Shown piece after piece: positions 58,166 to 59,605 of a DNA stretch of 64,000 nucleotides. Origin of the DNA: an uncultured Candidatus Nemicrothrix sp. (GTDB lineage: Bacteria; Actinomycetota; Acidimicrobiia; Acidimicrobiales; Aldehydirespiratoraceae); NCBI GenBank assembly GCA_964344055.1, contig CAYFLT010000014.1, positions 2,632 to 66,631 on the forward strand, in the 5' to 3' direction. Position 1 is the first letter of the stretch; each line of letters starts with the position of its first letter. The position numbers and the translations under genes were made by a program. Under the pieces are notes generated by a model. That model was not told the DNA's origin and did not search any database. It saw nothing but the letters and a program-made list of their open reading frames with translations.

Positions 58166-59605
58166 GTGAACGAGATCCGGAGCCAGCTCGACGAGCGGCT
58201 ACACCTCATCGGGCGGAACCTGCTCGAGATGACCGAGATGGTCGCCGACCGAGTGGGCAAGGTGACCTCCGCGATGATCGAGGGCGACATAGCGCTCGCC
58301 GATTCTCTCATCGCCGACGACGACGACATCGACCTGCTCTCACTGCAGGTGGAGGAGGGCTGCGTCGACACCCTCGTGCGTGAGCAGCCGGTTGCGTCGG
58401 ATCTCCGTTTCGTGGTTGCGGCGCTGCACATGAACAGCGACATCGAGCGCAGCGGCGATCTGGTCGCCAACATCGCAAAGGCAGTGGGTCGCCTCCAGGG
58501 GGCGCACCTCGATGACCACGTGCGCGACCTCATCGTGCACATGTCCGCCCAGGCGGTCGAGCTGTTCCGGCGAGCCGGCGAGGCGTTCCAGACCCGCGAC
58601 GCCGAACTGGCCGAGTCGATCGACGAACTCGACGACGTGCTCGACGATCTCCACGTCCGCTACATCCAGGAGGTCATCCAGGACGCGCGGCGGAGTTCGC
58701 TCGATCCCCAGCAATCCCTTCAACTCGCCCTCGTCGGTCGCTTCTACGAGCGAATCGGCGATCATGCGGAGAACATGGGCGAACGGGTCCGCTACATCGT
58801 CGATGGTTGGCTCCCCGAAGCGCACGCAGTCGAGCGGGCGAAGGCTCGCGCCGAGTCACCGGAACCGCGGCCCACTCGCGGGCTCGCCGTGATCGACGCC
58901 GTCGCCGAGGAACGCCGCATCGATGCGATCCGTCGCGACTTCGTGGCCAACGTCTCGCACGAGCTGAAGACGCCGGTCGGCGCGATGAGCCTCCTGGCCG
59001 AGACCATCGCCACCGAGGACGACAGCGCCGGTCGGGAGCGTCTGTCGGAGATGCTGCAGCAGGAAGCCAGGCGGGTCGAGGACATCATCGACGACCTCCT
59101 CGAGCTCACCCGGCTCGAAGAGACCGAGACCGACCGGAGCGAGTTGCTGGTCGGCGATGTCGTCCGACGGGCCGTCGAGAAGGTGCAGGCCTTCGCCGAC
59201 GGTCACCGCGTCGAGATCGCGATGGTCGGCCTCCAGAGTCCCGCAAAGGTGGTGGGCGAGGAGCGGCAGCTCGTCCGGGCGTTGACGAACCTGCTCGACA
59301 ACGCAGTGCGGTACTCAGACCCGGATTCCCGAGTCACCGTGGCGGTCGAAGAACGCGACGACAAGATTGCCGTGTGCGTCAGCGACGAAGGCGTGGGTAT
59401 CCCACGAGCCGAGCTCGAACGGGTCTTCGAGCGCTTCTATCGGGTCGACCGCGCCCGCAGCCGCGAAACGGGTGGCACCGGTCTCGGACTCTCCATCGTT
59501 CGGCACGTCGCGACGAACCACGGCGGAAGGGTGTTCCTCGAATCGAAACCCGGTGAGGGTTCGACGTTCACGGTCGAGCTCCCCATGGCAGGGATCGACG
59601 GATGA
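58166..59605 (+). CDS. PhoU domain fused to SenX3/PhoR-type histidine kinase (no TM segments, no complete PAS domain)
   Basis: Residues ~1-225 form a two-repeat PhoU (...DDDDIDLL..., ...[19 protein letters not shown]...). Then ...[19 protein letters not shown] (H-box), LLDNAVRYS (N), DEGVGIP (G1), [10 protein letters not shown] (G2). AAGGAG sits 6 nt before the GTG at 58166. Confidence 0.85.
   Translation: [479 protein letters not shown]

Follow-up and report, generated by a model that had tools for sequence, protein, structure and literature searches.

In Escherichia coli and Salmonella, the PstSCAB-PhoU-PhoR-PhoB system has phoU located after pstB, and PhoU is a negative regulator that bridges the transporter ATPase PstB and the histidine kinase PhoR and also touches the CA domain of the latter (PMC9239213). 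PhoU represses the kinase at high phosphate, binding the PAS domain of PhoR through A147/R148 and its CA domain through R184 (PMC9239213, PMC4423584). In the actinobacterium Mycobacterium smegmatis, the two-component pair SenX3-RegX3 of the Pho regulon works together with PhoU1 and PhoU2 (PhoY1 and PhoY2 in M. tuberculosis), and it has been shown that purified PhoU1 plus inorganic phosphate (Pi) shifts soluble SenX3 to the phosphatase state, that the PAS domain is essential, and that the Pst transporter and membrane anchoring are dispensable (PMC12301784). Pi has been proposed to bind the RxxERxxD(R/H) motif of PhoU helix 6 (PMC12301784). In all three organisms, the PAS domain serves as the docking site of free PhoU. 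Here, we describe a gene in a 64,000-nucleotide stretch of DNA from an uncultured Candidatus Nemicrothrix sp. (contig CAYFLT010000014.1; hereafter the window), in which a complete PhoU is fused in frame to a kinase core of the SenX3/PhoR type. We estimate at about 0.6 the probability that the product is a functional protein that would serve the Pho regulon as a soluble, bifunctional histidine kinase/phosphatase, with the complete PhoU as its input domain.

Judged by analogy, the M. smegmatis SenX3-RegX3/PhoU system is the best functional analogue of the fusion, being an actinobacterial Pho two-component system in which PhoU, with Pi, switches the kinase to a phosphatase and the anchor is dispensable. 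The two differ in that SenX3 depends on a free PhoU and an essential PAS domain, whereas the fusion has a covalent PhoU and no PAS domain. The E. coli and Salmonella components belong to the same families, but PhoR possesses a pair of transmembrane helices together with a charged region and a PAS domain, and its PhoU is a separate protein. PhoU is also found as a covalent module in the Na/Pi cotransporter NptA with a C-terminal PhoU-like domain (the Staphylococcus aureus NptA type; YjbB in E. coli), which still controls a phosphate two-component system and which a survey of 926 genomes recorded in 258 of them (PMC13170248). In these proteins the PhoU-like domain belongs to the transporter side, whereas the window has a canonical Pst-type PhoU on the kinase side. 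As far as these sources are drawn on, the open-access full-text literature and the 926-genome survey of PhoU, PhoR and transporters (PMC13170248) describe no natural PhoU-kinase fusion; subscription literature and domain-architecture databases lay outside this scope, and the latter probably list the architecture, since the proteins are deposited in NCBI.

A complete PhoU in frame with a PAS-less kinase core

The fusion gene (58166..59605, plus strand) is an uninterrupted open reading frame (ORF) that encodes 479 aa. Its GTG start codon is preceded by the Shine-Dalgarno sequence GGAAGGAG, and an alternative in-frame GTG at 58148 would give a product of 485 aa. The 479-aa product is 100% identical to a database protein (P0001). 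Its PhoU module (58181..58807, plus strand) comprises two PhoU repeats that make up a six-helix bundle, with the ERSGD and RFYERIGDH motifs intact. The NCBIfam profile for full-length PhoU (TIGR02135, PhoU_full) matches residues 12-220 over profile positions 1-209 of 212 with 160.2 bits, against a curated cutoff of 130.25, and Pfam PF01895 is matched twice. A sequence search of the PDB with the N-terminal half returned the PhoU structures 1t72, 1xwm, 4q25 and 2i0m over residues ~5-220 (1e-18 to 1e-25).

The PhoU module is followed by the fusion junction (58808..58876, plus strand), which, as defined by alignment to unfused PhoU and kinase pairs, consists of the C-terminal tail helix of PhoU (GWLPE..ERAKAR) and a variable linker with many Pro, Gly and acidic residues. 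Next comes an orphan last β-strand of a PAS domain (RGLAVID), which aligns with the sequence G-A-I/L-A-x-V/I-D/E-D at the PAS end of unfused kinases, and then a signaling helix leading into the DHp domain (strand and helix, 58877..58930, plus strand). The HisKA/DHp domain (58931..59122, plus strand; PF00512, 57 bits) contains the phospho-acceptor His265 (CAC, 58958-58960) within the sequence SHELKTP, as well as the HExxT phosphatase motif. The HATPase_c domain (59258..59590, plus strand; PF02518, 113.6 bits) has all four ATP-binding boxes, N (NLLDNA), G1 (DEGVGI), F (FERFYR) and G2 (GGTGLGL). In the numbering of the 485-aa product, Pfam places HisKA at 262-325 and HATPase_c at 371-481; the Pfam scan of the fusion protein gave no PAS match. 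The NCBIfam profiles delimit a PhoR/PnpS/WalK-type kinase core at residues 239-479, and the matches to those for PhoR (TIGR02966) and PnpS (NF046044) begin only where the PAS region of the profile ends, with scores of 240.3 and 250.6 bits that do not reach their respective cutoffs of 334.2 and 400. The PDB search with the C-terminal half returned HK853 (2c2a/3dge) over residues 249-474 (3e-43). No transmembrane segment is present in the protein, the maximum Kyte-Doolittle hydropathy over all 19-residue windows being 0.93, and the corresponding maxima of 120 fused homologues range from 0.74 to 1.89.

These results bear out all the architectural claims of an earlier sequence-only reading of this stretch, which had recognized a complete PhoU in frame with a SenX3/PhoR-type kinase core, the lack of a transmembrane segment, and a last PAS strand plus signaling helix as the sole remains of the PAS domain, the GLAVID sequence being indeed the last PAS strand of the unfused orthologues. 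It had also stated that no separate phoU follows pstB, and none is present between pstB and the kinase; the peptides that it quoted are found in the sequence as given. With respect to the definition of PhoU, the fusion has the full-length profile match, the two repeats, the motifs of helices 3 and 6 (ExxxD and RxxERxxD-R/H, as defined in PMC12301784) and a gene directly after pstB, but instead of a stand-alone protein of ~210-250 aa the PhoU forms the N-terminal 45% of a protein of 479 aa. With respect to the PhoR/SenX3 kinases, it has the catalytic features and the orthologous gene position, and lacks the membrane anchor, the PAS domain and a full-length profile score. The fusion is a variant of a known system that belongs to neither the PhoU nor the PhoR/SenX3 family as these are now defined.

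An AlphaFold2 model of the monomer, computed with an input alignment of 64 sequences, predicts a six-helix PhoU bundle at residues 2-213, mostly with a predicted local distance difference test score (pLDDT) above 90, and a short tail helix at 217-230. Residues 232-257 have a pLDDT below 50 and are predicted to be disordered, and they are followed by a DHp hairpin (247-319) and the CA domain. Structure modeling, which the sequence-only reading had named as a check, thus gave a divided answer: the individual domains are predicted with confidence, and their relative arrangement is not, the predicted template modeling score (pTM) being 0.50. In 102 family members, the ERIGDHA and RDFVAN anchors lie 55, 56, 57, 58, 59, 60, 62, 65, 66 or 67 residues apart, and the variable linker itself consists of 20-30 aa, with Ala, Arg, Glu, Gln and Pro as its abundant residues. 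Because these steps in length ignore the heptad register, the linker looks like a flexible tether rather than a rigid helix or coiled coil.

Conservation of the fused gene and its origin by in-frame deletion

The homologue search covered 5.8 billion proteins, clustered at the 90% level, and returned at least 120 protein clusters that combine PF01895, PF00512 and PF02518 and show identities of 62-100% to the query. These fused homologues are 477-499 aa long with a query coverage of at least 97%, with the exception of one of 453 aa (92% coverage). Two further full-length members, P0121 (55% identity) and P0122 (52%), were present in a library of 50%-identity representatives. All the named sources are Acidimicrobiales, Acidimicrobiaceae or Actinomycetota metagenome-assembled genomes (MAGs). 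Columns are on average 71-74% identical in alignments comprising 18 and 64 members, and only the junction with its linker is variable. The SHELKTP sequence (S264-P270), the HExxT motif, the N, G1, F and G2 boxes (including N375, N379, D407, G409, G411, F421-D428 and G436-L442) and the PhoU motifs, with the proposed Pi-binding motif RxxERxxD(R/H) among them, are invariant throughout the fused family, and E94, R95, D98, R192, E195, R196, D199 and H200 are invariant in fused and unfused proteins alike. Judging from these alignments, both halves of the fusion are under strong purifying selection.

The RGLAVID strand is strongly conserved at most of its positions even though the PAS sheet is gone and the adjoining linker is hypervariable. 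In the 64 fused proteins, R238, A241, R250, D253, A254, R256 and D258 in the strand and the region following it are invariant, and G239, I243 and D244 are conserved in at least 90%. The strand may contribute to a new interface.

A scan of GTDB representative genomes gave, among the matches listed, two fused loci (L001 and L002) and seven loci of Acidimicrobiales or related bacteria (L003, L004, L006, L031, L033, L055 and L064) in which the match to the query spans 1.8-2.1 kb instead of 1.43 kb. These seven loci are unfused, and contain a phoU gene (235-254 aa) and a kinase gene (379-428 aa), followed by the regulator gene. The phoU and kinase genes are separated by 6-19 nt, except for a 4-nt overlap in one of the seven (L004), and in 3/7 loci both are in the same frame, so that the stop codon is the sole separator. 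Each of the unfused kinases has one N-terminal hydrophobic helix (Kyte-Doolittle 2.35-3.32). Five of them were scanned for PAS domains, with matches above or near the Pfam cutoffs in L033 (PAS, PAS_4) and L003 (PAS), and a weak match or none in the other three. The genes in these relatives (L033, on chromosome OZ224042; L003, L006, L064) are orthologous to the two parts of the fusion, with 38-45% identity in the PhoU domain and 42-56% in the kinase core and with the same PhoU motifs and kinase boxes, and L033 shares the synteny of the window, having the order pstSCAB-phoU-kinase-regulator-uvrD. They differ from the fusion in having two proteins and a membrane-anchored kinase, with a PAS domain in L033 and L003. 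In another of the unfused loci, L004, phoU is present as a tandem pair situated between pstB and the transmembrane PAS kinase (1950-3382).

The breakpoints were mapped by aligning concatenated PhoU and kinase pairs with the fused proteins. The stretch missing from the fusion begins a few residues past the PhoU tail helix (GWLPE..RAKAR), extends to the last PAS strand, and amounts to ~170-190 codons. The ~170 to 190 absent residues comprise the end of the PhoU tail, the transmembrane helix, the juxtamembrane segment and the PAS domain. On the basis of these alignments, we consider it demonstrated that a single in-frame deletion joined phoU and a PAS kinase with a single transmembrane helix in the ancestor of one Acidimicrobiales clade. 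The deletion would have taken the phoU stop codon, the membrane helix and nearly the entire PAS domain. The fusion is the derived state, because the model systems have separate genes for phoU and the transmembrane PAS kinase (PMC12301784, PMC9239213) and because a vestigial PAS strand persists. The origin that the sequence-only reading had suggested, by loss of the 3' end of phoU and the 5' end of senX3, therefore agrees with the unfused relatives, in which phoU is followed by a transmembrane PAS kinase in the same synteny. In a comparison with nine sequences and for one clade, 18 positions distinguish the fused clade from the relatives that contain a PAS domain; these positions are spread across PhoU helices 2-6 and the DHp and CA domains, and form no obvious patch.

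Neighbor-joining trees with 500 bootstraps were constructed from 215 columns of PhoU, from 229 columns of the kinase core, and from both combined. The main fused group, including P0121 and P0122, forms one clade, with bootstrap values of 99% (PhoU), 96% (kinase) and 100% (combined). Related uncultured bacteria encode three other proteins in which PhoU is joined to a kinase of the same family, and these are placed among the unfused sequences. One, P0124 (506 aa), is PAS-less and belongs to a four-member cluster found on several contigs. The other two, P0123 (585 aa; in two independent assemblies) and P0126 (577 aa; on one contig only), have the architecture PhoU-PAS-HisKA-HATPase_c, in which the PAS domain is kept and the membrane helix is absent; in contrast to the window fusion, nothing but the stop codon and the transmembrane helix was lost from them. 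Since a common origin of all the PAS-less fusions receives bootstrap support of just 1-13%, recurrent fusion at the phoU/kinase boundary is likely, and P0124, P0123 and P0126 are probably independent fusions, a provisional assignment in view of the distance trees and the small sampling. One further protein, P0128 (396 aa), is a P0124-type fusion with a single PhoU repeat, the result of an internal deletion or of misassembly. P0133 and P0146 were considered as candidates for a free PhoU and rejected as frameshifted or chimeric fragments, and the other two-stretch matches in the representative library are tandem or hybrid kinases without PhoU.

Gene neighborhood and PHO boxes

The fusion gene is preceded on the plus strand by pstS (53590-54735; Pfam PBP_like_2), pstC (54740-56152; BPD_transp_1), pstA (56180-57202; BPD_transp_1) and pstB (57214-58107; ABC_tran), the genes of the high-affinity phosphate ABC importer, and pstB ends 58 nt before it. 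Its stop codon overlaps, as ATGA, with the start of a gene for a cognate response regulator of the OmpR/PhoB family (59602..60300, plus strand; Response_reg and Trans_reg_C), which is RegX3/PhoP-like and scores 219 bits with the PhoB profile (TIGR02154) and 251 bits with that of MtrA, both under the cutoffs. Downstream of the regulator lies uvrD/pcrA (60358-62601; 747 aa). The fusion thus occupies the slot that the transmembrane PAS kinase has in the unfused relatives, between phoU/pstB and the regulator plus uvrD. On the other side of pstS, the minus strand carries nptA (52314-53453; PF02690, 131.8 bits), which encodes a Na/Pi cotransporter without a PhoU domain, and, after it, a separate divergent PhoU-like gene (51612-52286; PF01895, 42 bits; TIGR02135, 42.4 bits against a cutoff of 130). 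This arrangement corresponds, in split form, to the NptA-PhoU fusion reported in PMC13170248. A second pstS paralogue is present at 50419-51525 (plus strand). Among the ORFs from ~47.5 kb to the end of the window, there is no PhoU-family gene other than the fusion and the PhoU-like gene linked to nptA.

The divergent promoter region between nptA and pstS contains five GTTCACC direct repeats within 58 bp (53488..53545, plus strand), with spacings of 11, 8, 11 and 21 nt. The window as a whole has 22 copies of GTTCACC versus 7.8 expected, and two further copies plus variants are located upstream of the second pstS, where GTTCACC, GTTCAGC and GTTCGACC repeats occur at 50335-50374. The PHO-box consensus of Streptomyces PhoP is GTTCACC in direct-repeat units of 11 nt. 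The sequence of the arrays is consistent with a RegX3/PhoP-type regulator and with autoregulation. The 58-nt gap between pstB and the fusion gene contains no GTTCACC box, and it is therefore likely that the fusion gene is co-transcribed with pstSCAB.

Eight loci with the fused gene were compared, and the regulator gene follows it in all eight. In 6/8 loci, the fused gene comes after pstB: the window and L084-L087 have pstSCAB directly upstream of it, and in L001 pstB is directly upstream, pstB being the only pst gene confirmed there. The fused gene of L002 lies beside nptA without pst genes in between and has similar boxes upstream, and in L081 there is no pst gene within 8 kb of the fused gene on a contig of 3.08 Mb. 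The MAG of L002 (contig CAXMSE010000014.1) is labelled 'uncultured Gammaproteobacteria'; its uvrD and nptA are 87% and 77% identical to the window genes, and this contig or bin is probably a mislabelled member of the Acidimicrobiales.

Two neighboring genes show peculiarities of their own. The PstC of the window (470 aa) has an extra N-terminal membrane domain (54740-55230, ~165 codons) with a weak match to the RDD family (PF06271, E=0.001, below the cutoff). A long PstC (463-494 aa) is also encoded in the fused loci L085-L087, the PstC of L084 is of normal length (315 aa), and the unfused loci L033 and L039 match residues ~165-470 of the window PstC only. This extra domain and the anchorless kinase may have evolved together. 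The uvrD/pcrA homologue of L085 (9502-12453) encodes 983 aa with a faint Hint_2 match, a possible intein.

Mechanism, alternatives and significance

From the architecture, the conserved motifs, the synteny and the PHO boxes, we infer how the fusion might be switched and by what signal. The role of the PAS domain and the membrane anchor would be to bring PhoU and the kinase together, and both would become dispensable once PhoU is tethered 1:1. When phosphate is sufficient, the PhoU module, loaded with Pi and/or metal at its RxxERxxDH and ExxxD sites, and/or engaged with the PstB ATPase, would bind to its own dimer at the DHp/CA core, thereby bringing about the phosphatase state. When phosphate is scarce, the module would let go, and the core would autophosphorylate at His265. 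Phosphotransfer to the co-translated OmpR/PhoB-type regulator would follow, and the regulator would bind the GTTCACC PHO boxes upstream of pstS, the second pstS and nptA, and probably induce the kinase operon as well. In the version that we prefer, the PhoU module would sense cytoplasmic phosphate directly, and docking on PstB would be an additional, non-obligatory input. Taken as a strict claim, a PhoU module that reads cytoplasmic Pi directly is a tentative proposal, to which we give somewhat less than an even chance. The same tentative standing applies to the wider view that PhoU is a cytoplasmic phosphate receptor acting on the DHp/CA core, which would make the fusion a self-contained, soluble, single-polypeptide sensor that needs neither membrane, PAS domain nor Pst, with PhoU-kinase fusions having arisen more than once and independently (the main clade, P0124, P0123 and P0126).

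Several points weigh against the proposed soluble kinase/phosphatase. The AlphaFold2 monomer shows no confident interface between PhoU and the kinase, and the residues through which PhoU contacts PhoR, A147/R148 in E. coli and R184 in Salmonella, are unconserved at the aligned positions of both fused and unfused Acidimicrobiales proteins. Moreover, all the fused homologues with a named source are from MAGs; the check for another phoU or senX3 covered the last ~16 kb of the 64-kb window; and the linkage to pstB may be functional or may be merely inherited synteny.

The least probable explanation, to which we attach hardly any weight, is that the fusion stems from an error of assembly or from an in-frame deletion confined to one strain, or that the gene is a pseudogene in decay. 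The sequence-only reading had warned that the fusion might be artificial or very recent and had mentioned clean deletions in other genes of the window, and, compared with other Acidimicrobiales, the fusion does amount to a deletion, while some database entries of the family (P0133, P0146 and P0168) are clearly frameshifted or chimeric. However, the identical architecture and junction recur in the at least 120 clusters, which come from NCBI, ENA, JGI and Logan assemblies and in many cases from contigs of 0.1-4.5 Mb. These homologues have diverged to 52-62% identity with their catalytic and PhoU motifs still invariant, the linker evolves freely between conserved flanks, and the fused clade is monophyletic with 96-100% bootstrap support. 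The fusion is thus fixed in its clade and neither artificial nor recent, and the separate phoU and senX3 genes at this locus that the sequence-only reading would have taken as counterevidence are seen only outside it. It is also rather improbable, though less so, that the genome has a canonical senX3/phoR elsewhere and that the fusion is an auxiliary regulator and not the primary Pho sensor kinase, its main task being that of a phosphatase gated by PhoU, or of a sink for phosphate from the regulator, or else the control of another regulon. Only 64 kb of the genome is visible, the last ~16 kb of which was scanned; the phosphatase motif HExxT is preserved; in many bacteria, several PhoU-type regulators coexist and form a hierarchy (PMC13170248); and the window contains a second, NptA-linked PhoU-like gene. 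On the other hand, the fusion is located in the exact orthologous position of senX3, between phoU/pstB and regX3-uvrD, which argues that it replaced the ancestral kinase and is no addition to it; neither the ATP-binding boxes nor the H-box vary, as would be expected of an active kinase; and this gene cluster is flanked by PHO boxes of the type to be expected.

A much closer competitor, though less likely in our view than the main explanation, is a sensor hard-wired to the transporter, in which PhoU mainly docks the soluble kinase on the PstB dimer of PstSCAB, thereby replacing the anchor, and relays the state of the transport cycle, with the kinase being constitutive in the absence of PstB. 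The fused gene directly follows pstB in the window, L001 and L084-L087, E. coli PhoU binds both PstB and PhoR (reviewed in PMC9239213; PMC4423584), and PhoU co-occurs with Pst in 99.4% of the surveyed genomes (PMC13170248). In addition, the kinase has lost its own transmembrane helix, so that recruitment to the membrane would need a partner, and the extra membrane domain of PstC in most loci of the fused clade might belong to a remodelled complex. However, the fused gene is located away from pst in L002 and L081, and in M. smegmatis, the closest experimental system, Pst and the membrane location are dispensable, PhoU plus Pi being enough in vitro (PMC12301784). Furthermore, adjacency to pstB is also the ancestral order in the unfused relatives, so that it was perhaps inherited rather than selected, and the linkage in 6/8 loci therefore fits the reading of Pi and the reading of PstB alike. 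The sequence-only reading had held that a covalent PhoU-kinase would hard-wire transporter status to phosphorylation of the regulator; this survives as one of two live mechanisms and not as the only one, given the linker of variable length that is predicted to be disordered, the two loci away from pst and the M. smegmatis results.

The fusion bears on the question of how PhoU senses phosphate and flips PhoR or SenX3 to the phosphatase state, on which current models disagree, both as to whether the signal comes from Pst or from cytoplasmic Pi and as to the contribution of the PAS domain (PMC12301784, PMC13170248). It provides evolutionary evidence of the 'Rosetta-stone' kind that the target of PhoU is the kinase itself, and suggests that the PAS domain is mainly a docking site for PhoU that can be replaced by a tether. 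It also offers a soluble one-chain system for biochemistry and structure determination, with a fixed 1:1 stoichiometry and without a membrane complex. The fused homologues are labelled 'phosphate signaling complex protein PhoU' in NCBI and JGI, and the use of the PhoU label for kinases of 480 aa is a systematic annotation error, owing to which genome surveys would score the clade as PhoR-less. Rather than a new kind of system, the fusion is a natural, conserved and probably recurrent rewiring of a known one.

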